The notes under the pieces are model-generated. The model saw nothing but the letters and a program-made list of their open reading frames with translations. It did no database searches and was not told the DNA's origin. A stretch of DNA of 64,000 nt from Trichodelitschia bisporula (taxonomy: Eukaryota), in NCBI GenBank assembly GCA_010356995.1, contig ML996710.1, positions 92,455 to 156,454 on the forward strand, in the 5' to 3' direction. Shown here piece after piece: positions 13,200 through 57,543 of the stretch; position 1 is the stretch's first letter, and each line of letters opens with the position of its first letter. Position numbers and translations under genes: made by a program.

Positions 13200-13548
13200 T
13201 GGTCGCGCGATGATATGGCGAGGTTGTCGTATGCCACCGCCATCAATCTTTGGGTACCTTCCAACAACACAACCTGGGCCCCAGACTGCAGCAACCGGGA
13301 GATGGAAACCAGGTTGGCCCCAAGCTCTGGACAGTGCAGACCTTTTTCAAGGCGCAACCCCACCATTCTCCCCTCGTGTCTGCACTGCACCCGCACGGCT
13401 CCGCTCCCCGCCGTTCTCAGACGCGACCCGCCGACGCCGTTGATTGTCTGCACGCTCCCTGGTGGGAATGCTTCGTAGAGTCGTCCACGAAGTCGTCCAA
13501 GCGGCTGGTCATGTGTGTCGAGGCGCCTGAGTCAAGTACCCCAGAACA
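13195..13548 (-). repeat. Inverted duplicate of 10202-10550 (element E protease region plus start of LTR B)
   Basis: Reverse-complement alignment with scattered substitutions and small indels. Confidence 0.9.
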
Positions 13549-16500: not shown

Positions 16501-16620
16501 TTCAGTCCAACACAACCCCAGAACGACGAGCATGAACATATCGCCGTCGAGGAGGAGTGCTCTGGGATCGCCGACGAATGTGCTCTATCGGCGATGGGAT
16601 GAGTGTATGAACCGTCGTCC
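13549..16620 (+). mobile_element. Ty1/copia element C, forward part: 5' LTR 13549-13724, PBS 13725-13736, gag 13833-14520, protease, integrase
   Basis: TGTTGG...ACAACA then GGTTATGAGCCC; CFHCKK, WMLDTGATRH, HKRLGH...CDAC, RVHIDYWGP, QNGIAER, LRVFGCKAY motifs. Confidence 0.92.
15540..15753. mobile_element. 214-bp solo LTR inserted in the integrase of element C
   Basis: TGTTGG...CCGACA ends; TSD CAAAT on both sides. Confidence 0.92.
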
Positions 16621-17728: not shown

Positions 17729-17995
17729 CGTCCGAGGGTTCTCTTCGTGGAAACTAGCAGTGGCTGGTGTTCGAGCCAAAATCAATGTATCAATTGATCT
17801 CTGACTGACTAGCTCGACCTCTGAATGAGATCGGGAATGAGCGACTATATACACAACTTCTGACTTTCAGTATCTTCCATCGATCTGACCAATTTGTCAG
17901 GAAGAATACTCCAGATACTCAATTTGTCATCATAGAAGATTCTAGATCGTCATCCCGCAGTAGCTGGGTGTATACCGTCATTGCTCAGTCTGACA
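17729..17995 (-). mobile_element. LTR of copia family D (267 bp), no TSD
   Basis: Near-identical to 32901-33167 and 37769-38035. Confidence 0.9.
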
Positions 17996-18589
17996 GGTTT
18001 CCACGTCGAAGGCAGGGCCAGTAGCCGTGCAGTCTGACGTCGTCGTTTTGGAGCTTGCTGATCCGGTTATGCTACTCAGATCAGCGTCCGTATTCCACAA
18101 TCCTGACCTTGGATGTCAAAGAAATGTGGGGATATCACGTTCCTTGAATGATAATCACTTTATTGGCCACTGGCAGACCGTAAAGAGAAGAGATTTGAAT
18201 GATGGGTATTGATGAAAAGAAGAGGAAGAGGAAGAGGAAGAGGAGGAGGGAGAAGTAAAAAATGACATATATACCCCGTATCCCCGCTCTTCCCACGCCG
18301 AAGACTCAAATTCACTGGCAAGTCACACGCTCCGAGCCATAGATTCATACTGAGCTCCGCATCCGTACTGAAATCCGCCCCCGCAGTGAATTCAGCGGCC
18401 GGTGCGGAGACTCAACCCCGCGGCTGGACGGTGCGGTCCTGTGCGGGGTCCCGGGCCGGTTACTTGCCGACGAGTTATGAAGGCAATTGACTCATGCCCA
18501 GGAGGGCCGGTCAAACTCCTTTCCAAGGGAGATATGTGACCAATGGTTCAACACATGGTGAATCTTGCTGTGGAGCGGGGTTGAGGAAC

Positions 18590-18775
18590 TGTTGAACTAT
18601 GGCGGCAACCTGGGGTGGCTGGAGTGGAGCCAGGAGACAGGGGTCGTCTCCTGGCGAGGTATATAGTCCGCTCACTTCCCACTGCTAGTCAGTTAAGCAA
18701 CTCGTTCATGGAGAGACCTTCGGTCCAACTTGTGACGCAGTGATGTTTCCATTGATCACGCATCACCTTTCAACA
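18590..18775 (+). mobile_element. Solo LTR of copia family A (186 bp)
   Basis: TGTTGAA...TTCAACA; TSD GGAAC; homologous to the split LTR at 4458-4919. Confidence 0.92.
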
Positions 18776-19078
18776 GGAACAAAGGGCAGGCCATTTGGTT
18801 TGTGGGCCTCATGGCAATATTTACGGACATGTGTCAAGGCCGACTAAATTACGAAGCCGGATGGGCCGCGGGGAGCACACCAGAGTAAATTGGAGTTTTG
18901 TTCTCAGTAGATACAGTGAGTATATATGGGAGCTTTGCCCTTGAAAGGCCGACAATTCCTTATCTCGACGCCTCTGCCTCGGAATTCGTGTTTCGGCGTT
19001 CTAATCGCCCCTGTCACTTTTTATATAGTCAGTACGCCGCTCTGTGGTGGAGACCTTCGTCCGGGCATAGTGAAACAC

Positions 19079-31880: not shown

Positions 31881-33073
31881 AGTTGATGAGATTTTGCGGC
31901 GGGCGGCAAGTCAAATTTCAATTGTGCGCCGTCGGCTGCGGATGGACCAAGTGAAGGGGCGCGAAGGCGGCGCAGCCCGCTGTGGGTTAGGGTTAAGATT
32001 CCGGGATGTGAGTGCGGGGAACACGCCGGCTGACTTGGCGCATGGGGAGCGGACGTCGCTGAAGAGATAGAATAAACACGAGCGGGTGTGATATCGGCGA
32101 GGTGATGTTGCAATACATGATGGTGTCAAAGCGCAGTGATGGACTGATGGTGGGAATGGATGTGCTGGAGTTGAGGAAAGTATGTGGGTTAGGGAAGCTG
32201 TGGGCGAGACTGCTGACGATGAACGTAGGCTTCGTAGGAGGGCAGCAAGAGACTAAGTGGCATTATGACATCTTGAATGTGATACAATGCTATGTGATGG
32301 TGTGTCGCCATCTCAATAACGCCTCGGACCAATTTAGAGTGGATCCCGGCGAGAGACCGCGACAGTGGGAAAGGTACACCCCCCTTCTTTGACAGAGGTC
32401 ACTTGAGCTTATGATGGCTAGAGCAGCTTAAGAAGCTCCCGCACGCATTCCCGCGCTTGAGACGGCATACCAGCTATTGGCAGTATATCTACACCGCCGT
32501 CGCCAACTTCGACTAAGCTCAGGAGAACCCGGGCTTGTGGTCAAGTTGGGGACCGACGGGTTGCTTGAACGGTGACCGCTTTATCGCGGAGTCCTGAGAA
32601 GGCCCCCCAATTGCAAAAACACTGTGCGGGACGCCGGAAGTAGAGAGCTTTCGTAACCGCAAGCTGCGGTGAAATTCTTGCTTTTTGAAGCCTTTGCTCT
32701 TTTGAGCCTTTGAGGGCGGTGCTGTAGGGGAATTGTAGAGAAGGGGCTGGAGGAAGGGGAGGGGGAAAGGATTACCCTTAAAGTCTTGCAAGTGTAGCCC
32801 GCTCTCTTTGTCTTTGGATTTGGGCATTGGACGGCCTCGGAGGCAGGGCGTCTGGGCCTCCTTGTATTCTCAGCACATGCTTCACTGGATTTGACCCTTT
32901 TGTCTGGGGGTTCTCTTCGTGGAAACTAGTAGTGGCTGCTGCTCGAGCCAAAATCAATGTATCAATTGATCTCTGACTGACTAGCTCGACCTCTGAATGA
33001 GGTCGGGAATGAGTGACTATATACACAACGTCTGACTTCCAGTATCTTCCATCGATCTGACCAATTTGTCAGG

Positions 33074-34407
33074 AAGAATACTCCAGATACTCAATTTGTC
33101 ATCATAGAATATTTTAGATCTTCATCCCGCAGTGGCTGGGTGCATACCGTCATTGCTCAGTCTGACACACCCCCCCAGCCAGGCACTGCTTTCCTGTTTA
33201 AGAGTCGAGGACTCGGTCTGAGATGTCCACAAATCCTAGTTGCTTGACAAAAGTTTGATGCTTTTGCGTCGGTAGAGCCTTCGTAAGGCCATCTGCTGGC
33301 ATGTTGGCTGTCTCAATCCAATGGATTTGAATTCTGCCAGCCTGAACTTCTTGCCGAAGCCAATGGTGGTTTATGTCCACATGTCGTAGCTTTGTGGTAA
33401 ACTGAGGGACATTTGAAGTGAGAAGACGAATCGTTTGCTGATTCTCGCATCCGTTCGAAATCGCATGAAAAAAACCAAACCACATCAACGAAAAGAAGCA
33501 CAAACAACAAAACACCCCCTGGACACCGGAAACCAAGGAAAAAACCACGCCGCCAGAGAAAGACACGCCGCAGCAGACATACGCCGACCACCAAAAGGCG
33601 AGAGAGACGCAGCAAACCGCGAACAGAAAACCACCAGAAGTCGCAAGAGAAGCAGCAAAACCTCCGAAAGCTCCACAAAAGCCAACCGCAAAGCAGCGCC
33701 AGCCCGCAGACAGGAAGATACGATACCGACACGGAACGCGAACGCGAACGCGAGCAATCGAATAACCCGCTAAGAAACATGCAAAAACTTTCAAGTCAGA
33801 AGCGACACACACTCACCAAACTGCACAGCAGCGAGGAACAAGACCGAGCGAGAAATCGTCAAGCCGTACAAAGGCCAAACAAACCGGAACTCCAAGAAAC
33901 AGAAAGCAGCCACAACAGAGACCACGAAAGCCGAACCACACGCAAGAGCTCACACTGCAAAAGAAACCGACTAGCCCCAACCAAGCCCCCACGCCAGCAG
34001 CAAGCACCCAGGCCACGCGATTTCGAACGGATGCGATAATCAGCAAACGATTCGTCTTCTCACTTCAAATGTCCCTCAGTTTACCACAAAGCTACGACAT
34101 GTGGACATAAACCACCATTGGCTTCGGCAAGAAGTTCAGGCTGGCAGAATTCAAATCCATTGGATTGAGACAGCCAACATGCCAGCAGATGGCCTTACGA
34201 AGGCTCTACCGACGCAAAAGCATCAAACTTTTGTCAAGCAACTAGGACTTGTGGACATCTCAGACCAAGTCCTCGACTCTTAAACAGGAAAGCAGTGCCT
34301 GGCTTGGGGGGTGTGTCAGACTGAGCAATGACGGAATACACCCAGCCACTGCGGGATGAAGATCTAAAATCTTCTATGATGACAAATTGAGTATCTGGAG
34401 TATTCTT
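33074..34407. repeat. 391-bp inverted repeat (33074-33464 / 34017-34407) around a 552-bp loop
   Basis: RNase H C-terminus, PPT and LTR start present in both orientations with a few mismatches. Confidence 0.93.
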
Positions 34408-35960
34408 TCTTTACTGCGTCCATGAAACCATGTGTTGGTGACGCTGCAGTTCTTTCCAGTCCTTCGGAGGCGGAGGGAGGCCATCCTGGTGTAGCCTCAT
34501 CGGTTTCTGGCTGATGCCTGCGCTGAAAGTGGTAGGCAGAGAGCTGGTTGACTTGCTGGAGCTCGGCAAGATATGCCTCCTTTCTCTTTCTGCTTCTTGG
34601 TCCTTCAACAATATTCGAAGCGGATATGCTACTGCCGATGTCTCGCGTTGCCTGCCTTGGTTTCGATGCGGGCATCGGCGTTTCTTCTGGTGAAGGAAGG
34701 TAAGGCTCGTAAGGCTGTCGTTCTTCTCGCTGCGACGTGTCGACGACTATGACGTCTCGGATGTCGTCTGAGCTGTCGGTTTCGCTCTCGGTGTCGGTTT
34801 CGCTTTCGCTTTCTTGTTCCTCATCGAGAGTGACGTCTCGGGTCGAGATGACTCTCTTCTGGCTCGGGATCCAAATGCGAAAGATGTTCGTCGAGTCGTA
34901 TCCTACTAGGTAGCCAATCGCTGCTCTCGGCTCCAGTTTCTCTGTTCGTGGGATTTTCCTGGTCAAAGGATACGCCCTGCATCCATAAATTCGCAGATGC
35001 GCGATGCTCGGTGTCGAGACTGGTATCGCAAGTGCTTCTTGCAGGAATTGTACAGGTGTTCTCCAGTCAAGGCCTCTTGTCGGCGTCCTGTTGAGAAGAT
35101 ACCCTGCGGTCTTGTAGGCTTCTGGCCACAGGTCTGCCGGCAGTCGTGATGCGATTTGCAAGGCTCGTGCTTTCGCAATTATCACCCCCCCAGCTCGTTC
35201 AGCACCTCCATTCTGTGCTGGTGTGTAGGGAGCTGATATCTCTGTTATGATACCTTGACGTCTGGTCCACTCTCTGAAATTGTTGCCGATTGATCTCTCG
35301 CTGTCGCTGTGCAGAACCTGTATCTTTCGTCGATACCGTCGTTCGATCATGGTCGCAAACTCCTTGATGGTTGCCGTGATCTGTCCTTTCTTCGGAAAGG
35401 TATACACGAAGTGCATTCGTGTGTTATCGCAGAGGAAGTGCAAAACCCGTTCATCGCCATTGTAGGCTGGTGTCATCTGAATAAGGTCAAGGTGAATCCT
35501 CTCGAATGGCTCGGTTGATCGTGTTCGCTGGCGACGCGAAATGATCTCTTTTGCCTTTGAGACGCTGCATGTCTCGCATTGTGTAGTCGATGGTGCTCTT
35601 CCTTGGACCTCAACGCCTGTCGTGGCCTGGTCCAGGTGTTCGATTGCCTCGGGGCTTGCATGGCCTAGTCGCTGATGCCATGTGTCTGCGGTGGCCTTTG
35701 GCGTAAGTGGCTGTGCTGAACGAGCTGGAAATGCCTCCAATTCTGAGTCCCGTTGCTCGTTGTGCTCCAGTACGTATTGGCCGTAAAGCTGTTTGATTCG
35801 GCAGAATGTCGTGCCGTTCAGGGTAAGGCGGTTCGTTGCGGTATCCCATTGAATGCCCTCAGCATTGAGTCGCCTGAATGAGACAAGATTCAGCGGGAAA
35901 TCGGTGACATAGGCCACATTCGCTAGCTTCAATGTCTGCGGACCTACGGGGTGGTCAACG

Positions 35961-36174
35961 TGTCGGCATACCCAATGTCGGGATACCCGAAAGGCAGGCT
36001 TGGCACGGCGAACACCGAAGTGGCGAAGATGGACGACGCCGAAGTCCGATGAAATTCAGGAACATCCTGGAGGACCCATCACGGACATACACTGTTCATT
36101 CTGTAAACCAGAGAAGGCAACAATCTGGGCAATCAATCTTTTCTCACACAATTCTTTGAGCACTTCCGCCAACA
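35961..36174. mobile_element. 214-bp solo LTR inserted in the protease region of element D
   Basis: TGTCGG...CCAACA; TSD CAACG. Confidence 0.92.
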
Positions 36175-39100
36175 CAACGGTGACGTGAACTGTCCCGAAT
36201 CCTTCAATGGGTAAATGCTGCATGCCAGCAGCTAGGAATTGGTGTTACGAAGTGGAAGGTCTGTATTCCACGAATCGAGAGAGAGTTGCAAACGTGGGTG
36301 GTCGCTCCTGAGTCGAGGATGAAGCTGTCATGCAAATGGGAGTCGGCGGTCGCATAGGCTTTCTTAAAGCCGGCCGTTTGCAGGTTGTCCCTTGGAGCCT
36401 TTTCCTTCTCTTGCTTCTGTATTCTCTCGATGATTTCACGAAGCCGTGGGTTCTTCAGCTTCTCGTCAATCTGGCGTTGTACCTCTGGGTTCGGCTGCCA
36501 GTTCTTCTTCTTGTTCCGTACCGTCTCGATGAGATACGGGCATTGCCTGAACCTATGATCTTCGCCGCATACGCATGCCTTCTTCCTGTCGTCTTTCCCA
36601 TGCTCATGCTTGATCGTTTGGGTGAGTTCCTGTCCCTGGAAACTCGCTAGGAAAGCGTTGTGCGACGCTGCCTTGGCCTGGGCCTTGGAAATTCGCTGGT
36701 CATTTCGGAAGTACTCGATGATTTGGAAAATGTCCGGTACAGGCTGTCCTTGGTATTGCAGAAGCTGCAGGCTGTTCTTCCAGAATCCTGAAAACTGCGG
36801 TGCCAGATCAGAGACGGCATCCAAAAAATCATGAAGCGGATTGCCATCTGAAACCTCGGGCGGGTTGAGGTCTCGGCATTTCGTGTAAGCTTCTTCCCAG
36901 CGATTGAGCCAGGTATCGATTGCTTCGCTCCTTGGCCGTTTCTTGAGCTGCTGATAGAGGTTGCTCATCTCAATCTCTCGTGCTCGATCGGACGGTGCGA
37001 CTCGTTGCTTTAGTGCTAAGAGCATGTCGTAAGCGCTGTTGCAGTTGAATGTGTACGTCAGAAAGCCTCTGGAAATCGTTTCTTGAATGAAGACACGGAT
37101 GCCCCCTAGAGCGGCTTTCTTGCGGTCGTATTCCGTCAGATGCCTCTTGTGCTGCAAACGAAGGAACTTCAGCCCTTCCTTCTCGTCTGCATCAAGCTGT
37201 GCGAAGCTGGTCTTCTGAGGATTGACGGTGTTGGGCATCGGAACTTCGGGTTCGCTGAGGACCGGTATCAAGCTCGCTGGCGTTGCCGGGTTCACATAGT
37301 CCCAAATGTCTCCTGAAATTGCTTTGGTCTTGATGACTTCAAGCCAGTCATCCCAGTCGGCATGGCAAGCAAGCACGACCGGCGTCTTTCGGACTTGCTG
37401 AGCCACCATGGTTTCGTTTGTCGTTTGTCGGATGGTCAAATGCGTGACCTTAATAGGCTGTCGAGCCTATGTTCGCTCTTTCTCGGACTGTCGTTCCCGG
37501 TGAGGGAATCCAGAGAAATTCGGGCTGAAGTGGCGGGTGTTGTGGCTTTGCCGCTGTGGCAAAGATCGTCGGAGGTATTGCCGGAAATGGTAAGAATCGC
37601 CGTGATTCTACCTCGGTGGCAAAATTCGTCGTCGTGGCGCAGATCGTCGCGTTTTGCCGTCGTTGCCAGAATCCCTCGGGGATTCTATCGCATTCGCAAA
37701 AGAATCGTGGTGCCAGGAATCGGGTCGTCGTGCTGGGCTTGCTAGCAAAAGCAACCCGGGCTCATAACTGTCTGAGGGTTCTCTTCGTGGAAACTAGCAG
37801 TGGCTGCTGCTCGAGCCAAAACCAATGGATCAATTGATCTCTGACTGACTAGCTCGACCTCTGAATGAGGTCGGGAATGAGTGACTGTATACACAACGTC
37901 TGACTTCCAATATCTTCCATCGATCTGACCAATTTGTCAGGAAGAATACTCCAGATACTCAATTTGTCATCATAGAAGATTCTAGATCGTCATCCCGCAG
38001 TGGCTGGGTGTATACCGTTATTGCTCAGTCTGACACTTTGTTATTCTTTTGAAACGAGTATCTCACAGTCGCTGGTGATGTAGTTTTTGTCCTAATCAAC
38101 GACAGTGTCACTGGCAACCGTGAATACCTTTCAAGTGTAATGGTTCAATTCAAGCAATATTGCGTTGAGGAGCGGAAGAGTCAGTAAAGATAGGATGCAA
38201 GTGCTCCTCTACGCCATCTACGAGGGTAGGCGCTACCAGGAGCTCTGTCAGCTAGCACCGGCTCTAAGTAGAATTCCTCGCTCATTGACGATGGTATTCG
38301 CCAAGAGCGTCCTTGACACGTGAAGGCTCCAGGCCCTGGAGGGTCCCGTGACGGACTGATGCAACGGGTTCAGCTTCACGCCAGACAGCCCACACCCTTC
38401 TGGCTGCAAGTCACTCACCGGCCTCGAAACTTTGGTATACGTGCTGTGTACCGCTTCCCCGTCCACTGACTGCATCCCGAGTCGCATGAATGCCGTGAAA
38501 CGGGCTCCTTGCTCATCCGCCCGCATCGCTCCGAAAACGAAGAGGTAAGTGCACCGCTGTCAAGCTCGCAAACGCCTAACTTGTGTCAGGAATATCGAGC
38601 GGCCGAGGAGTTGAATACGTGAAGATGCGATCCTTCATCCTCCTCATCAACCCACTAATGGCCCGACATTGCCCGCGCGGTCTCTGTCACTGCCCGTGGG
38701 GTTTCTCTCACGGCCTCTATGCGGCGGATCCAAATGACGGATCCTTGTGAGAGAACGATATCCTTTTGCGAGGACTGTTTCCAGCCTCCGTTCATTTGTG
38801 GGATTCTTTTTGCTGAGAGGATAGGGGCATCGAGAGGCATGCAAGGGAGGACTTCACAAGTGAGTCATCGCACTGGGTGTGGAAACCTATACTGACATTA
38901 GCTTTAGGGTGTGTTCGATTTCCACCAGACAAAAATTCACATCCTTCATCTGCCTTTCGTCACTGCACCGGGCCAATGCTTCGCCTCCATGTTTGATGTC
39001 TCGTCCTTGATGCTCTTGCCTCAAAGCACTCCAGTTACTTCCACCCGCCACCTCATCATCGCTTCAATACAGGTACGCACTGGAACAATAGCGGCGCTCG

Positions 39101-40198: not shown

Positions 40199-40463
40199 TG
40201 TCATGGGATACCATCTCTGCCATGTGAGATCGCCACATGCCCTGTGCTGGTCACGTGACTCGGTAAGCTTGATGCCTAATCCCTGCAATTCCAGCCCGGC
40301 TGGACTTGCAGGGGTTATAACTTGGCGCTGGCTGTGCGCTAGCACCCCCAGCTCCCCCACACTCCACATTTACACGCGAAACCCTTACATAGTTCTTCAA
40401 GCTTTCAATGAATGTTATTCCACAACCAATGCTGTGCAACCAGTGATTTGTGCGCCCCTGACA
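40199..40463. mobile_element. LTR family G copy without TSD
   Basis: TGTCATGGG...CCCCTGACA; reverse complement of 46367-46613. Confidence 0.85.
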
Positions 40464-41657
40464 CCTACGCTCTGTCCGCACGCGCACCCGCTTCGAGTGG
40501 AGGAGGCCATCGGCCATGCTTATATACTGCGGGAACTCTTCATCGATAACGTCGTCATAGAACCTGGCCGGAGCGGGCGGTATGCAGGCTTCGCCGCGGC
40601 GGGCGTTCTCGGAGGCGCGCTCGTCGGTAGAGGCCAGCTCGCGCGACTTATAGTTGCGGGTTACACACTGCTCACTCTCTCCTCAATCTGCTCTTCCACT
40701 CCAAACACTTCACCATCTGTCGGAAGGCTTGATCTAGTAAGTAGGGTGGACTGTAGGTGGGCTAGCCGGACTTCAAGTTGATCTTAGAATTTACAAGGCA
40801 TGTGTTTTTCACCAACATGGCTCTCACAAAGACTTCCCTGTTTCGGCAGCGTCACAACAGGCGATAAGGATCAATGTGTTGCCCAAGGCGGCCACGATCA
40901 AGTGATTGACGCAGTCTCAACCATTCTAATTGTGCTCCAGCAGCCAGTGCAGAAAATTTGGCAGACTGATACCCAGTACCTCCCGCGCCGCCGCTCTTCT
41001 TCCCCGCTCGAGCCCGCGCGCAGCGGCGTGTCGGCTGGCGTCGCTCCCACCCTACAGCGCTCAGGTCTCCCTTCGCCGGCTAGCGAGGCATGGCGGCTGC
41101 AGGTGCCAAAAGACTCTAGATCGAGATTCAAGTCCCATGCGCAAACCATGCCCCTTCGTCAATATACGCGGAATCCCGCCGATCTGGATCGGACGCGCCC
41201 CCGTCGTAATTATCACTTTGCCACTTTATTTGCGGGAAGCACGACTAAAACTACGAGGCACGGCGCGTCCGCCGGCGCAGGATGCCTTCATGAAATTGAT
41301 GACATCTCTTGCTCAGATTTAAGGGAATACACCGGTACCACTCCCGTAGAAAGCCCCTGTGCCTAAGAGGGCGGCTCTAAGTGCCGCGAATGTCTGACAC
41401 AATCAAGCCTTCTGGATCTTCTGTTGGAACCCAGTCATGAGGTCTCACATTCATCCATCACCAGCCTTGTCAACAACAGCCTATACGCGCGCCCACGAGC
41501 ACGTACCCTACTCACCATTGCTCTTATTGAAGTATTCAGCCGGTCATTCCTAGTCCACCATTTTGAAACGCCACAACAGTGAACGCGACATGCAACACTC
41601 CAACTCGCCGCGGCGGAGCCTCATTCAACTGCGGTGCCCCGCCTTGCACGTGATACA

Positions 41658-41683
41658 CTAGACCCCGCAGATGGCTTGTCCGC
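41658..41683 (-). mobile_element. Second Helitron-like 3' terminus
   Basis: Minus strand GCGGA-CAAGCCA-TCTGC GGGGT CTAG T. Confidence 0.35.
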
Positions 41684-43789
41684 CTCACTTCAGCCTCGTA
41701 GGTGGCCTATGGACCACACGCACGCGCGCCCGAGTCCAAATCACGATGTCACTGCTTTAACGCACAGCAGGCGTACAGCAGCGCAGGTCTCTATCAATAT
41801 GTTTTAGTAGTGCTTTTCCGTGCCCCGCGGTGCCTCATGATGCGCCAGCAAAATCGTGAAACACGCCTAGCCTGGTTAGGCTCCCGCAAGCCTAATTAAG
41901 CTCCCGCACGGCTCGGGTCGATTGGGCTGAATCCGCCACCTTAACCCCCGCATACGCAGCAACTCCGCTATGCCCCGCTCCACCACTGCCACGTTACAAA
42001 TCGGCCGGCTATGGCTTACGAATGAAAAACAAATGACGTGGTAGCGAGGTGGTAATAGTTAGAGAGACAGCGATACAATCGTTATGCCTTCGGAAGCTCC
42101 TCCGCACCTTGCTCTTTGACCGACCGGTACAGCGTCGCATACCTGAATCATAGCATCATCACCATAGTAAGTCCAGCCCTATAATGTCGGGAATACCCGT
42201 TCTGATACCCATCGCCGTAGCCACTCGCAAAGCCACGGTGGCAGAAGATGTTCAGAGATGGAGTGTTTAGAAGCGCCTGTTGGAACACTTTGTAACGGGG
42301 AACTGCTGTCCGCTCTTTTCAAGTGTGAGCGACAAGTACTTCAGATTGTGAAAACTATGCGACAACTTACCCAATATATACGACTGGACTGGAGCTTGTT
42401 GATGATGAAATCCATCACATCATTGAAGACAGCTTCGTACTTTGACTCATTCAAGAGCTGAGCAACGAAGTCACTCGCGCGACGTCAGTTTGTCCGGGCG
42501 TCATGACAAGCAACTTACCGGCCAATTTTGCCGTCTATAATGCCCCTCAGAGTTTTCGCCCTCCGGAAGGCAGTCACTCTCTCAATGATGAGACGAGCAG
42601 TCTTCCAGAGCGTGTGCCACTATATATTGAAGCGGCCGAATGGCATGCCGATGAACACGGTCGCGGCTGTGCTTGATTAATCTGAATGCAAACGGAGGCA
42701 AAGTGGGGTTGAGTCACGAACCTCTCGGCGTAGGACCTTGGAATTTGGTCCTCCGAGCCTAGGGCTTTTTCTCTGCCTGTTATCGCTTTTACCCGTGGCC
42801 CATGTCAAATACGCTCCCGTTAAAACTTCAGTGCATGCTTCCGAAAGTCGCGGGAAGAAGTATGTAATGAGATGAATGATGAGCTGCCCTGTTGTGGACA
42901 AATGGTGATTGAGAGCTTGAATGATGTTTCCATACTCGTTGCGGATCATAGGGCGTCCGCAGCAACACTTGCATGCAAAGCGGTATATAGAGAAGTATAT
43001 GATGAGGTGTGTTGATGTTGAGGAAGAGGAAGAAGAAGAGGAAGATGTTGGGGATTTGGAAGAACTTTTACCTCCCGCGGTGAAGGGAGAAAGTGCTGGA
43101 GCAGTGAGTCACTTTTCGGGTTACAAAAAGGGCAGTGACGGCCCAAAGCACGTGCTGGTAGGTACCCCGCGCGGCCGCCTGATTCTGACGGTCATCAGCT
43201 TCACTGGGCTGTGGTGGGGGCCAGGCGTTGGCTGCCCCTCGACCGCCATAACAGGCAAGTACGGGAGGCTATCTATCCACTTGCCTCAGCCTAATGGTGT
43301 TGTGTACCTCTTTTGCATTGTGTCCTTGTGAATTTGAGAAGCTGCCGTAACAGGAGTCGTGGATGGAAGACATTTTTCTGCGGCCATGGAGATATATTCC
43401 CCCGAACAATGGGACCAAAAGCTATTGTTCATCAAGACTACAAGAACTGATTCTGTGAATTAAAGAGAGCCGGTGCTCAGTGACGACTGGCGTGAATATA
43501 TACGAGATTCCACGAAAGTGGAATGGGTCATAGGAGTTGAGTGGAATTCTACCGGCAGGCCGAAGGGACTGTACCCCTTATTTTGAAGGCCTTCATAAAA
43601 GCTGCCAGTAGCCACGAAAAGTTCCATTGAACTCTACGCCCTGAAACGTTGTGCGGTGAGCGGTGCACCATATCAGGGTGAAATCATATGGTAGAGTAAG
43701 AATCACAAAATTCTCCTGATTTTCCCCGGCTGTTGCATCATGATATGTATGTTCAATTTGTGTCCGATGCGGTTTCCGAAGGTCCATAC

Positions 43790-45075
43790 AGAGAGCTAGT
43801 TAAGCTAGCGGCTAGATACAAGGTAGTTATGCCAGGCCAAACCCCCCTGAAGGGACGGAGCCCTGCTTTTGGAGGAAACCCCTTTTTGATGACCTGGTAG
43901 CGCTCGGTCGAGCTCCGGGCGCCAGCCATAGGTCTTCAGTCGAGCTTGAGGTTGTTATTTAATAGAAGAGAAACTACCTAACGCTCTTGGCTTCGCAGCC
44001 ACACTTGTTCACTTATCTCCATGTGATCCGTTCCTGTGTAGGTCCAAAGGGGGTGGGTGCCGATCCCCTACGCCTTGACGCATCAGACGTTATAGGCGTA
44101 CCGGTTAGGTGTTAGGTCTAGGCCGGGTCGTCGCCGGTGGCTTCGCCGGGGCAGGCGACGATGGAGGTAGAGGAGAGGGACGTGTTAAACTTGCTCCCTC
44201 GTTTGCTCTAGGTGGAGGTAGAAAGCTCCGGAGGTCGCCCTGACTAGGCATTGGTCGGCTCTGTACGAGCGGTGGTCGTCTTCGATCGCGCTTTAGGGTC
44301 TGGGGGAAGGCAAGCCTTGTGGTAGTGTTGGGGCCGGGGGTCGCCCTCGGTAATGCCGGGACCGGGACGGTCTCCGGTTGTCCGGCTCCGTCTGTGACGG
44401 TGACTTTCTGGGGCTGTGGACTCACCTTTCGTGAAGCCTGGCGTTTGCTAGATGAGAGGGAGCGCTGGTGATCTACACGTGCCGTCTGCTATATGGCAGA
44501 TAGGGTGGGCGTTAAGGTGATTAATACCCTGGCTCTACTCCGGCTACGCATTAGACGGACGGACCGTCGAAGGTACGAGTGTAGCTCCGGCGGTCGAGTG
44601 CTCGGTTGCTGAGCTAGGGCCGGCGGAGTCGACGTCTATCTCGTTGGGGTCGGTGGCGGAGGAAGCGTCGGGCGCGCTCCGGTCTAGGGCCTTGCCCTTC
44701 TCCGCTTGCTTTGCTTCCGCCTTCTTCTTCCTGTTGTGGGTGACCTTGATCTATACGTTTGGGGGGGGTCCGCGGCCCGGCCCGGTGTCGGCGTTGCGTC
44801 GATTGATTTCTGGTCGGTCTCTATAGCTGGTCGGGTTCTTGAGGCGGTACATCGTCTTAAGGCATTTGGCGCGCAGCTCTGCGAGCTGCTTGTCGTAGTT
44901 CGTCCACTCGGGACAAGCCGTACGCTGGTCTGCGTTACGGGTATGCGTCCTCGCCAGCGCTGGCTGGGTGCAGACAGCGCACTTCATCCGGCGTGCGTCT
45001 CCCTTGTGGGGACAGGCGGAGGCCCGGTGCTCACGCACGCAGTAACCGCAGTGCGTCTCTCGTCGACATGTGTTG
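43790..45075 (-). mobile_element. Degenerate Tad1-like LINE fragment (ORF1 zinc knuckles), TpA-enriched
   Basis: CGYCVREHRASACP...KCAVC...H...CP tandem knuckles; many TAG/TAA stops and TpA dinucleotides. Confidence 0.55.
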
Positions 45076-46366
45076 CATCGTGATATGCAGAAAGTCGAGT
45101 CACTCGGACGGAAATTCAAAGGATGGAAGTTTCTTGCAACTCAACAGGATAGTCCGGGAGCATCAGGTTGATGCTCTCAACCTGAAAGCGCATATATGTC
45201 TGAGAAACGCCAGTCAAACCCTTTGACATGAAGAAGTTGATGGTTCGACATCTAAGGATGCATTCCGCTCCATTCTATATATCTAACATTCCCAGTGGGC
45301 CAGCGAAGAGGCATCCCTCCCCATCAATCCATTTCGCCACGCCACAGACCCGCTTTGCTGAGGAATTTGGACATGCTGCATTGCTACGGCCGTTGACGGC
45401 GGCGGCGGGACAGCCGCCGTTGAAGTAGTAGACGCAGACGTCGAGCGTGAGAGGACCGCGCCGCATGAAGAAACGGATGGGTTTTGGCTTACGGAGGCTG
45501 TTCGGATTGATGATCCGAACCAGCCATTGAGTCTGAGTTACTGTCTCACCGGAATTGATGGCATGTTTCCGTCTTCATACGCGGCTTCGTCGTTAGCAGT
45601 GACCGTCTCATGATCCACCGTGTTTTCCGAGGCGTCGTGAGAACACTGGTCCGTGGTACGAAGGCTGTCGCCGGCACCATCACTGATAGATGCAAGCCTG
45701 CCAGAGGAGAATATTCGGGCTTTCATAGAGGGAACGCCTTCTGAGGCTGAATGTCAGGAGTGGGGTCGCTGTTAGGGGACGGCGTTGCCAGCTGAGAATG
45801 GAACGAAGAATGAACAGAGAGGATGTGTTGACTGGTGTTTTCAAAGGTGGCCACTGCTGATGTTGGGCTTGGGTTCCCGCACAGTGTCGGGGTCAATTAT
45901 GCGGATCGGAACATTTGCCTGAGTGACGGTGTGGTTGGAATGGTTGCCGGCCTCATCGTCCATGACCTGGTCCTCGGTAGTAGCCGCTTCGTGGCCCAGC
46001 GGGTGGTCCTGAGAAGAAGTTGGACCGCGTCACACTTGTCAGTTTCGGTAATGCCAGAGTCCGAACTTTTGAAAGGTGTTGTATCTGTCATGGTCTGAGC
46101 ACGCCAGGCCCTGCCAGGGCGTTGTTGAACCATACTACGTGATGCAGCCGCTCGGTGCCAAGCCCAGGGCACTGCCACCCCACACCTGCATTTCAGTTCT
46201 AGACCTTCGACATTTCCTCTTCATAGCAGTATTTTCTGTCATACCCGCATTCAGTGCATTCGATGTCCCAGACGTTGCCCGTGACATTATCGGAGAAGCC
46301 ACAGAGTCAGAACTATTTAAAGGTGTTTATCAGAGAAGGCGCAGAGCCCGAACTCTTGAAAAGTGT

Positions 46367-46613
46367 TGTCATGGGCGCACAAATCACTGGTTGCACAGCA
46401 TTGGTTGTGGAATAACATTCATTGAAAGCTTGAAGAACTATGTGAGGGTTTCGCGTGTTAATGTGGAGTGTGGGGGAGCTGGGGGTGCTAGCTCACAGCC
46501 AGCGCCAAGTCCTCACCCCTGCAAGTCCAGTCGGGCTGGAATTGCAGGGATCAGGCATCAAGCTTACCGAGTCACGTGACTTGACATGGGAGAGATGGTA
46601 TCCTCCCATGACA
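46367..46613. mobile_element. Solo LTR family G (247 bp)
   Basis: Perfect 9-bp terminal inverted repeat TGTCATGGG...CCCATGACA; TSD AGTGT. Confidence 0.92.
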
Positions 46614-48662
46614 AGTGTTATCAGAGAAATCGCAGTGCTTAGCGGGAGTTGAGATGGAGGTCTCCGAAAGACTCATCATGGAGGAGCGATGGGCTGTCGC
46701 CGGTATATAAGTGGCTCGCAGTCGTGCAACCACAGTGTATAAAGGCCGGCGAAGGTGTGAATTGAGTGAAGGAGAAGGACTTGTTGTATTTGAGAGGATC
46801 CAGCTGGATGCGCGTCTTGACGCTGCGCCGGTTAGCAGGCGTGCGGCTGCATCATTGCGGGTAACTTACACATCGACTGGGGTGAGTGCGCCATGGGTGA
46901 CGGAGCAGAACGGCGGAGCAGAAGATTTGAGTTCGCAAGGCTGTACTCTGACCGTACCTTCTTGATGTACTCATCCGGATCTTCTGTCTTGTCTTCTCCG
47001 CGGAATTCGCTGCAAATGACCCGCCAGGTGGGCACTATATACTGCACACACTGCCCCCGGCCTCGGTCACAGTGTTTTCGGAATGGTTGCCAGCCTCGTC
47101 GTCCATGATCTGGTCCTCGGTAGTAGCCGCTTCGTGGCCTGGCAGGTTGGTCGAGGCGTTGTCAGGAAGCTGGTCAACGTATTGCGGCTTGACGACGGCC
47201 TTGAGGTTGTCCTCCAGGACTTTTGTGAAGTAGTCCGCAAATATATCAGTCTTGCTGAATCCACACTCCGTGATTGAGCCAGCCTCGAAGGATGCAAACG
47301 CGAAGACGAAGTCGGACATCGAGACCGTTGGCAGTACAGTTCCGCCTATTTCATTGAGTACCTCCGTCAGATTCTCGCACGATGCCAGGCGCCGCAGGCC
47401 GATTGTCAGGTGGCGTGAGCAGCGGAAGCAGCAGAGCAGTAGGACCACCTTCCAGAGGGATGTTTGGCCGCTCAAAACTCGTTCCAGCACGGAGACGCCC
47501 TGGCGAAACTCGGTTGGACGGACTCAAGTGCTGTATCCTGGACGACGGCGGCGGGCAGGTTACGCTGTCTCTTAGGGAGATTCGTCTGAGCGCCTTGGGA
47601 GTACGATGGAGTACGATGGAGTACGATGCTCGCGCGGAGGAATGTGATTGTGCTTTTTCACAATCGTCATCCTCCGGGGAGCGGTGCTGAATGCCCTTTT
47701 GTCAGCCGCGTCGATGCAGCACTGCTGTTCCTCATCGGACTCGGGGCTGAGTGCGGATGGCTTCCACATGTGCGTCCGGCCGTATATAGGTACCACGGGC
47801 TTGCGCGCGGTCTCTCGTCTCTGGCATGGAAGGTGAGGCTCGAATGCGCGGGTCCGACGATGTTCTCAGTGCGCAATGAAGGATGAGGGTGAGGATTCGA
47901 GTGGCTCAATTGCCGTGGAGGCTGATCACTCAATATATAGTCTTCCTCTGGGAAGGTATATACACTTTGCCCTTCGGAAAGTCCTCCACGCCCTTCTGCT
48001 TGACCCCAATGAAGTCCGACTTCCAGTTCCAAAGGCACACTCCTGCGTATGTTGCAACAGGAGGAATTTCGAAGAATTTGCATGTCTCTAGAAATGGAAC
48101 GGAAAGAGACTTCAGTGGCCCGATCGCCTGTGACGAACGTCTGAGCATCACCCGCCACACCAAGTTTGTTGAAAGCCATAAGTCCAAACACCGTTTCGTA
48201 GATTCCGAAACGCGTGGTGGAGTAGGCGTGTTGGCGAATGAGTGAGGCGGAGAGCTAAGTGGGTCAGTGGAGGGTTCATGCGTTTTAGGGGAAGGGGAGG
48301 GGAGGAGGGACGTACGCCGCACGAGATACACGTTATACCCGTTAGTGTCCCAGGCCTCGCTCTACCGGTGCAAAGGGCGGGCTGAAGTTGCCACCGTGTG
48401 TCAGGGGCCCACGGCAATCACTGTGACCAGAGTGTGGGTTTAACAAGCATTGATTTTACGGGGAAGAAGGTGGGTAGTATAGGAGCGGTGAATATATCTG
48501 GGGCTTGCTTAGCGAGGAGCCAAGCCTTCCCATGGGCGGGAACTTGTGCCAAGCCCCACCACCTCCTACCATCTCTGCTCCTTCAGGCTTACATCCATGA
48601 CACCGTGTCAGGTGACCGGATATAAGGGGGAAACGATGAAGACAGAAGAATGGCGCTTCATC

Positions 48663-49411
48663 AAGTTGGCCATCTTCTTGCTGTCTTCGGGCGAGAAGTG
48701 GTACTTCTCCCGCAGCACATCCTGTAGAGCTCACGGCCGCAGGCAGCTGATAAACAAGGGTAAGTATGAGAAAGAGCGTGGGTGGAAGGGCAGTGTGCAA
48801 GTTTGAGGAAACGGAAGTGGAACTTACTGGGTTGGAGATCCGCTTGATGTCACCGTAGATGGCGAATTGGTCCGCCGTAAGCGTGCCGGCCATGAAGAGA
48901 CGCGCGCCGATGTTGGCGTCCGGAGAGTACTGTGCCGCCGCCTTGGCGAGATCACGGACGACGGAGGCATTTGGGTTGAGCAGATCTCAAACGTTAGGAG
49001 GATCATTTGCAAGAGCACGCACACATACCAACGCGGGACAGGCCCGGCTTGCGAAGACGTCGGGACACCCTCGAACGCCGCCGCTTTTTCAAGGATCTCA
49101 TTGGTGAGCTCGGCCCATGTCTCAAAGGCAAGCTCCTCGCTGAGAACGAGCGTGTTTTCGCAGTCGAAGATGATTGTCGAAACCATCCGGGACTGCTATA
49201 GTGACGTTGGAGTCGTTGGCGGTCCCTGTGGAGGAGCAGTCGCCATCGCAGCAGTCGGAGACCATGGTCACAGAAGAGTGGCCGGGTCGGTTAGAATCTT
49301 GGACACGATGCGGGCGCCGTGGATCGGGGGGTTTGAGTAGAGCGGACGGACGTGGACCTTGATCTGCGAATCCACGTGCGCCTTCTCCTCGATGAAGTGA
49401 CGCACAGCGAA
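48663..49411 (-). pseudogene. Mosaic of gene fragments: aspartate aminotransferase (49280-49411), HAD hydrolase (49084-49186), malate dehydrogenase with introns (48822-49070), SRPK/Sky1 kinase (48663-48721)
   Basis: VDSQIKVHVRPLYSNPPIHGARI; IIFDCENTLVLSEELAFE; GVP..RKPGLSR/DLLNPNASVVRDLAKA..ISNP; DVLREKYHFSPED. Confidence 0.78.
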
Positions 49412-49652
49412 TGTATAATGAAAGATGATTTGATGGATGTTGAATGATGATGAAGAATGTTGGGCAGACTGACTGATGAAACAGAGAGCCGTGAAGGATA
49501 TACAGAAGATGGAACTCACGATGAAGTGATGGTGATGATGGATGAATGGAGTTGGGAGGAGAGGGAGAGGAAAGTTGGGAATTTAAAGTCCCGGGACTGC
49601 AGTGTGTGGGTCGGTTGCGTCATAGGACCGCCGGGAAAACCACACTCCGAAA

Positions 49653-49810
49653 GAAAGAGCAGCATGCGGAAGGAGCTGCCCTCAGAATGAGGAGTACACC
49701 GTGAAAGGGGCATGGGGAAAGAGCAGCATGCGGAAGGAGCTGCCCTCAGAATGAGGAGTACACCGTGAAAGGGGCATGGGGAAAGAGCAGTATGAGGAAG
49801 GAGCAGCTCG
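49653..49810. repeat. ~64-bp tandem duplication (about 2.4 copies)
   Basis: GAAAGAGCAGCATGCGGAAGGAGCTGCCCTCAGAATGAGGAGTACACCGTGAAAGGGGCATGGG repeated. Confidence 0.9.
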
Positions 49811-50794
49811 GAGAGAGCAGAGGAAGGAGCAACTCGCAGAGGGGGCAGCAGGCTGAGATACCGATAGGCCGAGAATTGAGCAGGCGGCTTGATTCCGGAT
49901 GCGGCTCAAAGCAGTGTGCGGTTTTGAGCAGCGAGCGGCTTCGAAGAGTAAGGAGCTTCGTGGAGTGAGGGGCGTTTGGCAGTGAGGGGCTTCGAGTAGT
50001 GTGCGGGATGAACAGTTCAGTGAGAAAACAGCATGCTGAGGGAGTATGAGTGACATGAATACCGAGAGAAATGCAGGAGAGATATGAAACGCTGAAATAA
50101 CTATGGAATGAAGTTCAACACTTTACGCGTTGGAGCGTAGAAGGATTTTCCGCCGGAGGCAGAGGGATCTCGTACTCACTCGCTGGCGTAATCGCGGGGA
50201 GAGCAGAGACTATCTTGAACGGGGACCATGGTAATGGACCACTAGCAACGCATTCAGTCCTGAAATCCGCCCGTTGCCGTGAATATTGTGGCCAGTAGCG
50301 TAGAATGAATTCCTAGAAATTAAAATGAGTGCAACCAGTGTCAGCGTTGTCAACAGGCCGGCAAATCCTTTTGGACTCTGTCAATGTGCATCTAGCTTCC
50401 GGGCGAGTTCTTTGTCTCTCCTTTATCATCAAGAATTAACTGAGTCATGTTCTTGTTCATTTTGCTCCGCGTGATTACTTCACCAAAGGCCGCAGTCTCT
50501 GCGCGGTGGTGGGCGTGAGAGCGGAAAAACCGGCGGAGTGATATGTCTGGCCGGTGTGGCGAAATTCACCAGCGTGGTGGGCCAAACGGAGAACGATGGG
50601 GAACAACCCATGGACCAACGGAACGAAGACAAAGGAAACAGGATAGAAGAAAAAAGAAGGTGGGAATTGCGTTTATTCGGAGCCGTTTTTACACAGTTCA
50701 ACCTACCGTATTCTCGCCGCATCAGATTTGGGCGGTGAGAAGTCGGGCACATGCGGCGGTGACGTCGGGGAAGGACGCTGATTGTCTGGCGGTA

Positions 50795-51495
50795 TGGCCG
50801 GTCTTGTATTCCTGCCCGTAACCCGCTTGCTCTGTCCAAGTCCAAGGGAGGACGTTGATGTTCTTGCACTGGGCGGATGGGGTAGAGGGCTAGGACGTAG
50901 GAGTATGCCATCGTGGGGCAATGCATATTTGAGGTGTGGTGTCGGGGCGTGCGGGGTACAAGTACTTGCGCGGCGGGGGCAGGCGGCAAGGCGGAGGCGA
51001 AGAGCGAGTCAGAGTCAACGAGCGGATGAGCGGATGAGCCGGTCTCGTGTTCCTGTCTATAACCCGATCACTCCGTCCCAACCCAAGGGAGGATGTGGAT
51101 CCTTTGGACTGGGCGGATGGGGTTGAGGAGCTAGGACGTGGGAGTATGCCATCGTGTGGGAGTGCATATGCGGGGTGTGGTATCGGGGCGTGAGGACTAT
51201 AAGTACTTGCGCGGCGGAGGCGGGCAGGGCGAGGCGAAGGCAACGAGCCGGTGAGCCGGTCTCATGTTCCTATCTATAACCCGATCACTCCGTCCCAGCC
51301 CAAGTGGGGATGTGGATGCTTTAGACTGGGCGGATGGGGTTGAGGAGCTAGGCCGTGGGAGTATGCCTTCGTGTGGCAGTGCATATGCGGGATGTGGTAT
51401 TGGGGCGTGCGGTGTGCAAGTACTTGCCCGGCGGGGGCGGGCAGGGCGATGCGGAGGCGACGAGCGAGCCAGAGGCAACGCGTGGATGAGCCGGA
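50795..51495. repeat. Degenerate tandem repeat, ~215-240-bp period, 3 copies
   Basis: GCCGGTCT..TTCCT..TAACCCG..ACTGGGCGGATGGGGT..GAGTATGCC.TCGTG..AAGTACTTGC blocks recur. Confidence 0.85.
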
Positions 51496-54200: not shown

Positions 54201-55029
54201 TGACACGGTTAAGAGGGGCCCTCCAACGGCCCAGCGGCGAACGACCAGCCCCGACGCGGCGTCTCCAGCTCCCGAAGGCGACGAGACTACGACTCATATC
54301 CCCTGCGCTCGCCGTCTTCGAAGATCAGTTTCTCCACGTTTCCTGATTCTCGAAATCGCTGAAGGTGGGCCGGACTACGAGACATAAGCCGGCGATGGAT
54401 GAGGGCATATGGGGGCTTGCGCTTATTGCGGCTTGGACGCGTCGCTCACGGCGGGTTCAATACCACAATACCAAGTTCTTGCTGGGCGACGCAATCATAG
54501 CTTTTGGCTTACGGACGCTCCGTTGTCTCGTCGTGTTGCGTGTTGGTATAATTCTCGTGGCGGGAGGCTGACGCGGCTCAGATGGGCCACCCTGTCCGGC
54601 CAGTAGCTTGTGACGCACTCCGAATCGGCGACTCCAGCTCCCGAGCAGCGGTGGGATTACGACTATGAAGGCCCTGGGTCCGCACTCTTCGAACTCTGCT
54701 TCTTCCCTCTTCCTACTATTGAAAGGTGATGCGCGATCAACAGAAACGTCACTGCATCACAAGTTGGACCGAAGGTCTGTCCATGAACAAGTTGCTTGAT
54801 TGTCAGAGGTGGGGATCCCGAGTCTACTTATACTCGAGCCCTGTGGCTGGAACTGGGTAAGGCTGAATACAGCCACCGCATTCCAACACCTACCTTTCGA
54901 AATAGTAGTGCATTGTTCAGACTGCCAGATATCAGCTCACTGTTCACAACAGTCTACACAGCATCGCAATACTCACAGCTTATACGTCGTACTCACTACA
55001 CATTCAAACCATCATCACCACACTCTCTC

Positions 55030-55765: not shown

Positions 55766-57543
55766 CTATCCACAAACCCTCGTCAAGCGCATCATGTTCC
55801 TTAACGCATCCTTCATCCTCCTCTGAACCGTCTTCCTCTCCATCGGTTTCTCAACCGTCGCCACACTCTCACTCTTCTCACTCTCCGTCACCTCCATAAC
55901 AACAACCGCCTCCCCCTCCGTCTTCGGCCGCTCATTCTTCGCCTCCTCTCGTAACACCCTCCGCAACACCTTGCCAGTCGGATTCTTCGGAATGCAATCC
56001 ACAAACACAACCTCTTCAGGCACCTTATACCTCGCAAGCCTCTCCCCCGTCCACTGCCGCACTTCCTCCGCACTCACCCCCCCTCCCCCCGCAGCCCGGA
56101 CTACATACGCCCGCGGCACCTCCCCGCTCCCATCCCCCAACTCCACACCCACGACAGCAGCATCCGCGACCCCGGGATGCGCAAGAATCACACCCTCAAC
56201 CTCAGCCGGGGAAACCTGCCACGCGCGCACCTTCAGCAAATCCTTCGCGCGATCGACCACCCACACCTTCCCCCCCTCCTCGCGGCCTACATCCCCAGTC
56301 CGCAACCACCCATCCCCCCACGCCGCCGCGCTCGCTTCCTCGTTGCGTAAATAGCCCAGCATGAGCGCTGGCCCGCGCACCAGCAGTTCGCCATCGCTGG
56401 CGACGCGGACGGTGTACCCGGGGAGAACGCACCCGACGCTGTCGTCCGGGGTATCGGCCAGGCGGCCGGCAGTTACCCACCCGGCCTCTGTCATGCCCCA
56501 TACGGGCTGGATGGCGGCATTCGGGTGCAGCGCGCGGAGCAAGGGTTCGCGATTCGGACGCGCAAGCTGCGCGCCGCCGAACCAGACTTGGCGGAGGGAG
56601 CGCAGGGTGCCAGACGTGGCCGCTGTATTTGCACCCAGCGCTACGATGGTAGGGGGCGCGAGGTATGTCTCCGTAATGCCGTGGGTGGACACCGTGGCTA
56701 TGAAGGACGGGATATCGAGGCGGGGCGCGATGTATGTCGGTATGCGGGACCGGATGGAAGAGGGCACGATGGGTGTTGAGAAGACGTGAAACGGTGGAAG
56801 CGCGGTCAGGCGAATTGGTGTGTAGGGCAGGGTTGCGGCGGAGGAGGACAAGAAGGAGGCTTGCGAGACGTGGTAGCTGTGCGGCAGGATGGCGGCTTTG
56901 GGCAGCCCCGACGTACCGCTTGTGCTGGCGTAGTGGGCCGGTGCGGTCGCGGGGTCGGCGGGGATGATCCACGACCTCTCGTTGGGGGCGAGGAGGGATG
57001 TCCATGATTGCACGCCCGGGGTTGTGGAGCTGGGTGCGAGATCGAATTGGTACACGGCGGACGGGGGGAGACCGCATTGCGCGGCGGCGGCGAGGGTGCT
57101 GGGCAGCAGGGCGGGCGCGGCGATTATGAGTTTGGGTTGCGTGAGCGCGATATGGTGCGCTAGTTCGGCGGGCTTGTACGCGGGGTTGACGCCTGTGAAG
57201 ATGCCGCCGCAGCCCATGATGCCGAAGTACAGCACGCTGTAGAAGACCTGTTGGCGCTTGTTAGTGGGAAGAGTGGGGGCGGAGGTGGAGAGGGGACGCA
57301 CATCGTTGAAGGCGTTGACGAGGACGCAGTCGCCTGGGCCGATGCCTGTGTCTTGCAGACCGGCGATGAGGCGGCGGACTTGCGAGCGGAGTTGCGCGGT
57401 GGAGAGACTACGGGTTGGGTCCGCTGCGTCGATGAGGATCTGGCATCGTCAGTACGCTTCCGCGGCGACAAAGAACAATGGAGACCTACGGGCTTGTCCG
57501 CCTGGACATCCGGATCGGCAAACGTCCAACTGAGCAAATCCAT
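55766..57543 (-). CDS. 4-coumarate-CoA-ligase-like adenylate-forming enzyme (AfeA-like), 3 exons: 57543-57490, 57439-57302, 57247-55766 (~557 aa)
   Basis: GT..AG introns with CTGAC/CTAAC branch sites that keep frame; STSGTSGLPK, WGMTE, LRTGD, DRAKDLLK, IPKNPTGK ANL motifs. Confidence 0.92.

Follow-up and report, generated by a model that had tools for sequence, protein, structure and literature searches.

Plant Helitrons and Pack-MULEs are well-known sources of gene-fragment mosaics whose transcripts are spliced to chimeric RNAs. Helitrons begin with a 5' TC and end in a subterminal GC-rich hairpin followed by CTRR, with insertion before a T. The patchwork fillers of plants exemplify filler DNA left by repair, and chimeric retrocopies, which arise by template switching of reverse transcriptase (RT), combine co-oriented pieces of several transcripts joined at short homologies. 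The locus described here lies in a 64,000-nt stretch of the genome of the dung fungus Trichodelitschia bisporula (the window; positions 92,455 to 156,454 of contig ML996710.1, assembly GCA_010356995.1), whose minus strand carries what its translated frames identify as a mosaic of short same-sense pieces of at least six ordinary gene families, approximately 3 kb in total. The mosaic is a real, expressed, and unusually dense patchwork of gene fragments. Searches of the literature on gene-fragment mosaics and gene capture found no fungal case of such dense sub-exon stitching, although one may have been published, and searches on Trichodelitschia found no report on genome structure beyond the paper on 101 Dothideomycetes.

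A transcribed mosaic of same-sense gene fragments

The mosaic spans approximately 46.8-49.4 kb of the window and lies on the minus strand throughout, as do all pieces and introns whose coordinates are given below. Among its roughly 20 segments and junctions, at least 11 pieces of 12-150 nt are recognizable, each by translation of the minus-strand frames and a match to a separate well-known protein. The nuclear gene families represented are dispersed and number at least six: mitochondrial aspartate aminotransferase (AAT), HAD hydrolase, mitochondrial malate dehydrogenase (MDH), SRPK kinase, indoleamine 2,3-dioxygenase (IDO), and one to three mitochondrial carriers. An earlier interpretation of the same DNA, made without database searches (the sequence-only reading), had named the AAT, HAD, MDH, and SRPK pieces, and protein searches recovered all four on the minus strand at the places it had given. 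The limits it had set for the mosaic were too narrow, because further carrier-like and IDO pieces follow downstream in the same orientation. That the pieces are copies of separate genes is borne out by intact AAT and MDH proteins annotated in T. bisporula itself; for the remaining pieces, the species yielded no donor.

The opposite strand served as a control. None of the 47 plus-strand open reading frames (ORFs) of at least 24 codons between 46.5 and 50.1 kb had a Pfam match at E<0.01, and the longest had a single, chance-level match in the PDB (E=0.83). The same Pfam scan of the minus strand (40 ORFs) recovered IDO (E=5.7e-10) and HAD (PF00702, E=0.0055, which is under the curated cutoff). 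Pfam is almost blind to pieces this short, and only IDO and, weakly, HAD surfaced.

The region is covered by contigs of four public sequencing runs from two studies. Two runs (X1 and X3, from one sample) are of the DNA type, and the other two (X2 and X4) stem from the second study. No run is recorded as RNA, and the conclusion that X2 and X4 hold cDNA is drawn solely from the precise removal of introns in their contigs. A contig of 1136 nt, present in both DNA runs, matches 48,547-49,682 with zero differences and keeps the introns. By contrast, contigs of X2 and X4 lack 49,028-48,986 (43 nt), 48,827-48,747 (81 nt), 48,315-48,255 (61 nt), and 46,869-46,823 (47 nt), all of which read CT..AC on the plus strand, equivalent to GT..AG on the minus strand. 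A single contig of 2012 nt, which extends from 49,682 to 47,486, bridges three splice joints. Because the contigs lack four minus-strand GT..AG introns, the mosaic is transcribed from the minus strand and its copied splice sites work. The spliced chimeric transcripts that the sequence-only reading had suggested looking for thus exist as multi-exon RNAs in two runs of one study, and the existence of the region itself is backed independently by unspliced DNA contigs and spliced RNA contigs. Contig depth is not a copy number and was not used to rank expression or copies.

Artefactual assembly or chance similarity would have to account for identical contigs in two DNA runs, for spliced contigs in both runs of the other study, and for E values down to 2.6e-12 in a search against 5.8 billion proteins. 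This explanation is so improbable that it can be set aside.

Pieces of aminotransferase and HAD hydrolase

The most upstream recognized pieces derive from mitochondrial AAT. Piece a (49385..49411) is identical to the T. bisporula enzyme at 9/9 residues, and piece b (49280..49390) at 34 of 37, with 34 donor residues skipped after piece a. In a search of 5.8 billion proteins, 122 of 146 candidates matched at E<=0.01; all 120 matches listed contained PF00155, and the closest among them was the mitochondrial AAT of T. bisporula (E=2.6e-12). Comparison with PDB sequences (phmmer) gave E=5e-9 to residues 268-305 of mitochondrial AAT and a second weak match approximately 38 residues upstream. In the donor protein, 34 residues separate FAVRHFIEE from AEEKARV, and the mosaic fuses the two sites at their common Glu-Glu, which confirms the internal jump that had been noticed at this position. 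The DNA runs contained no contigs of the donor AAT gene on this stretch, an absence not counted as a sign of divergence.

The AAT pieces are preceded by a C/T-rich leader (49412..49652) that is included in the RNA contig and has no ATG between 49622 and 49266; it is possibly a copied 5' untranslated region or promoter. Between the AAT and HAD pieces lies a further segment (49200..49279), in which the first AUG of the leader-free RNA, at 49265, opens an ORF of 48 amino acids. The N-terminal HAD piece (49085..49186) starts at an ATG and has Glu in place of the second Asp of the DxDxT motif. A large protein search yielded five matches among 280 candidates, the best of which was a HAD-like protein of Tothia fuscella (E=3.2e-6; 27/33 residues identical over residues 4-36); the frame had no match in the PDB.

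Malate dehydrogenase, its insert, and the kinase piece

The 5' part of the MDH piece (49029..49069) consists of the codons for GVP, seven additional bases that shift the frame (49060-49054), and the codons for RKPGLSRV (49053-49029) up to a 5' splice site, where the true enzyme has RKPGMTRD. Intron 1 (48986..49028; 43 nt, GTATGT..AG) lies within the MDH piece and is absent from the X2 and X4 contigs. The exon piece that follows (48909..48985) is identical to T. bisporula MDH at 23 of 26 residues, counted by hand from the alignments and including a species-typical run (pairwise E=8e-12). When the public gene model of the locus was used as query, T. bisporula MDH was the better of two matches among 797 candidates (E=0.012). 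A long frame containing the MDH piece had no match in the PDB, and a 53-residue MDH exon matched MDH there at E=0.32 only, level with enoyl-CoA hydratase.

An insert of 69 nt (48840..48908) that looks like the final helix of a mitochondrial carrier takes the place of two MDH codons (Leu-Val). A search of 1.84 billion representative sequences with the frame that holds the insert returned two matches, namely the locus's own model and a 66-residue fragment, 62% identical to the query over residues 14-50 of the latter (E=5e-4). For the C-terminal part of this fragment, 27 of 30 matches in a protein atlas carried Mito_carr (top score 0.94). The insert therefore resembles a piece of a mitochondrial-carrier-type gene, an assignment that is a lead and not a significant alignment. 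The sequence-only reading was right about an insert of some 70 bp that splits the MDH piece; the label "unrelated" does not hold in view of the likeness to carrier genes. The 66-residue fragment (ENA, P0127, on a contig of 508 bp) was considered as a sister mosaic and dropped, as it may be a carrier exon with a translated intron.

Beyond the insert, MDH resumes with ISNP (48828..48839) and stops at a GTAAGT donor. This donor site, contributed by the MDH piece, opens intron 2 (48747..48827; 81 nt), which is likewise absent from the RNA contigs. Both the intron at 49028-48986 and the donor at 48827 had been predicted, and both are used in the RNA contigs. Two short X4 contigs match the MDH piece as far as 48,909 and then read Leu-Val-Ile-Ser-Asn-Pro, as does true MDH, which fits a nearly identical donor transcript.

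The C-terminal piece of an SRPK/Sky1-type kinase (48659..48730) is out of frame with MDH in the observed RNA. In the search with 797 candidates, a CMGC kinase was the second match (E=0.81); pairwise comparison gave E=4e-12 with 19 of 24 residues identical, and the only two PDB matches were both yeast Sky1 (E=1.7). The CAG that precedes this piece does not represent a copied intron end, because the piece begins within coding sequence (ALQ.., compared with ALP.. in the kinase).

Downstream pieces

Further downstream, intron 3 (48255..48315; 61 nt, GTACGT..AG), absent from the RNA contigs, directly precedes a mitochondrial-carrier-like exon piece of 22 residues (48189..48254). Its atlas matches carried Mito_carr in 29 of 30 cases (top score 0.91), and it is possibly of the dicarboxylate-carrier type, again a lead only; a 45-residue carrier-like query had no carrier match in the PDB. 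The IDO piece (48011..48163) covers positions 82-129 of the 412 positions of PF01231. It is followed by an open frame of 162 codons (47038..47523) that shares stretches with other loci and may be a decayed paralogue. Within this frame, 68 nt (47,448-47,515) recur with two differences at a second locus represented in the DNA as well as the RNA contigs, and 88 nt (47,060-47,147) are repeated 1.1 kb away at 45,917-46,004 with 85% identity. The last piece (46780..46919) encodes a carrier-like N terminus split by intron 4 (46869-46823; 47 nt, absent from the RNA contigs) and yields a carrier signature once spliced; the motif is presumably the PROSITE carrier pattern, and the piece may come from a phosphate carrier.

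Four recognized donor families encode mitochondrial proteins (AAT, MDH, and carriers) with parts in malate-aspartate and phosphate traffic. This bias could reflect high expression of the donors, easier recognition of conserved proteins, or function.

Coding potential and the public gene model

All frames of the spliced 2012-nt RNA contain stops, and the longest ORF with an ATG start comprises 174 codons. A long ORF is absent because the pieces lie in different frames, which change from one neighbour to the next. With the observed splicing, translation from the ATG of the HAD piece would meet a stop after 53 codons. The main RNA is most likely a non-coding by-product rather than the message of a protein gene. 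One point weighs against this conclusion: contigs drop rare isoforms, so that a minor coding isoform is possible.

The public proteome contains a different solution. KAF2395875.1 is a 141-residue T. bisporula protein, named "hypothetical" or "HAD-like", in which the HAD, MDH, and SRPK pieces share one reading frame; its reconstruction requires introns at 49,032-48,986 (with a GTTGGT donor) and 48,827-48,722. Two of these four splice sites, one per intron, differ from those in the RNA contigs, which use the donor at 49028 instead of 49032 and the acceptor at 48747 instead of 48722 and thereby break the frame. The listing of this locus as a 141-residue "HAD-like protein", to which the RNA contigs lend no support, is a plain misannotation and calls for caution in annotation.

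A functional gene, encoding either an exon-shuffled chimeric protein of 141 residues or a regulatory RNA that acts on the donor genes, would be consistent with the in-frame joining in the public model, with the presence of spliced RNA in two runs, and with the mitochondrial character of four recognized donor families. It is nevertheless highly improbable. Apart from the discordant splice sites, pieces of 4-37 residues are too short and cannot form the domains of their parents, and among 1.84 billion representatives the chimera had no homologue other than itself. A regulatory RNA faces a different obstacle. That the locus might give rise to RNAs directed against its donors had already been proposed, and its transcription is in line with this idea; every piece, however, is sense to the transcript, which precludes direct antisense pairing with donor mRNAs unless an RNA-dependent RNA polymerase intervenes. 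Still more improbable than a functional gene in general is a selected multi-target regulatory RNA, whose sense AAT, MDH, and carrier pieces would be converted to small RNAs by an RNA-dependent RNA polymerase, or act as decoys, and so co-tune the donors. If it were true, one abundant spliced transcript would tune parts of one metabolic shuttle together.

Origin of the mosaic

The favoured reading, held with moderate confidence, is that stepwise repair-synthesis patching at a fragile site gave rise to a DNA-level patchwork pseudogene, which is expressed as a non-coding chimeric RNA. The pieces would have been copied at the DNA level, introns included, from dispersed nuclear genes by template-switching repair synthesis ("filler DNA") that recurred over several rounds at a break-prone, repeat-flanked site. 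The carrier piece nested in MDH and the dispersed repeat in an exon (see "Genomic neighbourhood") may represent later insertions, and the uniform sense of the pieces might have arisen because antisense copies of parts of essential genes, once transcribed, would be selected against. Genomic DNA is the favoured source because the pieces brought along introns, at least three of them complete and one represented by its start; capture from genomic DNA rather than mRNA, as the sequence-only reading had concluded from the retained introns, is still the simplest explanation. The jump within AAT also agrees with filler synthesis, since Glu-Glu ends both of the donor sites that it connects, which thus share microhomology at the protein level.

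Several points weigh against repair patching. Filler is expected in random orientation, yet every recognized piece is on the minus strand, and no matches came from the plus strand; for at least six independent donors, a single sense would arise by chance with a probability of about 1/32 unless a further assumption is added. The approximately 20 segments far exceed typical filler events, and microhomology was compared at the AAT-AAT junction only, and there at the protein level. The three carrier assignments are leads, drawn from atlas features, one weak HMMER match (E=5e-4), and reading of the sequence, and are not significant alignments. Lastly, the copy-number argument rests on contig depth, which is itself not a copy number. 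To explain the uniform sense, one must assume that antisense pieces were purged, as we infer above, that all templates had the same polarity, or that a transposon captured the pieces in a polar manner.

Templates of one polarity would make a single sense automatic. Such templates could be single strands from highly transcribed genes, either unspliced nascent RNA copied by a template-switching RT or sense strands displaced by R-loops. The donors do include abundant housekeeping genes, the HAD piece begins at its ATG with little upstream sequence, the jump inside the AAT donor and the exit from and return to the MDH donor resemble template switching, and Copia-type RT genes are present in the same window. 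Three or more full introns and the start of another are retained, which would be unexpected for mature mRNA; a processed retrocopy should lack introns, whereas the DNA contigs keep all four that are missing from the RNA contigs. Neither a poly(A) tract nor a target duplication was seen at the 3' end on reading the sequence, which also has no A-run before the repeat at 46,613, and no observation at this locus points to an involvement of RT. An origin from single-stranded templates is distinctly unlikely.

A polar mechanism would be provided by transposon capture, in the form of a non-autonomous Helitron or a MULE/CACTA-type transduplicator whose ends have decayed or are hidden under neighbouring repeats and which is transcribed by read-through or from a captured promoter. 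The mosaic shares with such elements its co-oriented, intron-containing fragments of many host genes that give rise to a chimeric spliced RNA, and it lies amid repeats, with a MITE-like repeat at its 3' border and a tandem repeat at its 5' border. The same pattern is described for maize Helitrons (PMC4528327) and a soybean CACTA element (PMC1947982) in the available portions of these reports. Against capture stands the lack of structural signs of a transposon. No pair of inverted repeats encloses 46.6-49.9 kb, and the longest inverted pair within 45.5-51.6 kb measures 21 nt. A scan of 46,200-50,300 for a hairpin (perfect stems >=6) followed by CTRR-T found no site on either strand, although its power is low, as shuffled sequences gave 0.26 sites and decayed ends would be missed. 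No transposase, RepHel, Helitron, or PIF1 domain was detected in 102 ORFs across the window or in 147 ORFs of 38-56 kb. Neither DNA run yielded a second contig with at least 90% likeness on 48,671-49,505, and a blastn comparison of the mosaic with the rest of the window revealed no sister copy, only one unrelated repeat of 73 nt. In fungi, one survey of Helitrons, in Pleurotus, describes elements without host gene fragments inside them, as far as its excerpted text extends (PMC4289320). The proposal of a Helitron, a Pack-MULE, or a new non-autonomous element has thus lost ground, as enclosing inverted repeats, a CTRR end, and a second copy are all lacking, and transposon capture can be entertained only as a tentative, rather unlikely alternative.

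Genomic neighbourhood

The neighbourhood of the mosaic is gene-poor and repeat-rich. Its upstream border is formed by a 64-bp tandem repeat (49653..49844; two exact copies and a degenerate third), at which both DNA and RNA contigs break. A tandem repeat of 217 bp, in three copies with 70-89% identity (50,787-51,461), lies just upstream of this flank. Inside exon 3 is a dispersed repeat of approximately 200 bp (48399..48602), with a summed depth of about 4x that of neighbouring bins and several variant contigs. The imperfect direct repeats of 12-14 nt on either side of it might be a target duplication. It is not a recognizable tRNA-type SINE, as Rfam and tRNA searches over 46-50.5 kb and 44-52 kb returned no match.

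The downstream end adjoins a MITE-like high-copy repeat of approximately 250 bp with short terminal inverted repeats (46366..46613), for which the contig depths in the DNA runs add up to about 30x that of neighbouring contigs. An inverted copy lies 6 kb away (40250-40463); the right-hand copy lacks approximately 21 nt found in other copies. The interval spanned by their 214-nt inverted arms (40,250-46,580) was considered as a composite element with terminal inverted repeats and discarded, because it appears to be two MITE-like copies and lies beside the mosaic, which it does not enclose.

Scrambled, partly palindromic remains of Copia-type LTR retrotransposons (gag, integrase, RVT_2) occupy 5,300-18,000 and 33,000-38,100 of the window. 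They include inverted arms of 711 nt that are 99% complementary (6000-6710 and 8262-8972), and their G+C content is approximately 0.51-0.59 per 1-kb window. A C-terminal JmjC/Cupin_8 fragment (E=3.7e-5, under the cutoff) is part of a short repeat with three copies, one of them inverted (4,600-4,938, 18,706-18,777, and 54,716-54,802), and may be another mobilized gene fragment. A small frame on the minus strand (43,071-43,268) has a sub-threshold match to the mitochondrial import receptor Tom5 (E=4.4e-4) and may represent either a genuine small gene or a further same-strand fragment of a mitochondrial gene. The nearest clearly ordinary gene is an intact-looking AMP-binding gene, acyl-CoA synthetase-like, at 55,769-57,448 (minus strand).

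Comparison with known systems

Chimeric retrocopies have no introns and carry poly(A) and target duplications, whereas the mosaic keeps introns and shows neither of these features. Filler DNA at repaired double-strand breaks (PMC1976456) shares with the mosaic, in the sections of the report that were available, the copying from unlinked loci, the absence of transposon ends and of a second copy, and microhomology, which in the mosaic was seen at one junction at the protein level. The mosaic differs in having far more segments than usual and a single orientation.

Pack-MULEs (PMC5861414) and the soybean CACTA element Tgm-Express (PMC1947982) likewise contain transduplicated host fragments, with alternative splicing of the mosaic, according to the accessible passages. 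What defines these elements, however, are their target-site duplications and long terminal inverted repeats; no such repeats enclose the mosaic of T. bisporula. The closest match in behaviour is found in the Helitrons of maize (PMC4528327, PMC3288121), which, in the available excerpts, also combine short pieces of multiple genes, introns included, into one array and produce spliced chimeric RNAs through copied splice sites. The likeness does not extend to the terminal features that were tested: neither a TC/CTRR end, nor a subterminal hairpin, a second copy, or a nearby RepHel was found. The pieces of the mosaic are also much shorter (12-150 nt) and include jumps inside a donor, and the host is a fungus. 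Its roughly 20 junctions form a compact natural record that could, after alignment with the donor DNA, tell repair synthesis, transposon capture, and single-stranded templates apart in fungi.

Among the Dothideomycetes, the accessory chromosomes of Zymoseptoria tritici (PMC3111534) likewise hold non-syntenic copies of genes from many chromosomes in gene-poor, repeat-rich DNA. In the part of that report that was available, these copies are whole genes or long pseudogenes, whereas the mosaic of T. bisporula unites sub-exon pieces in one transcript.

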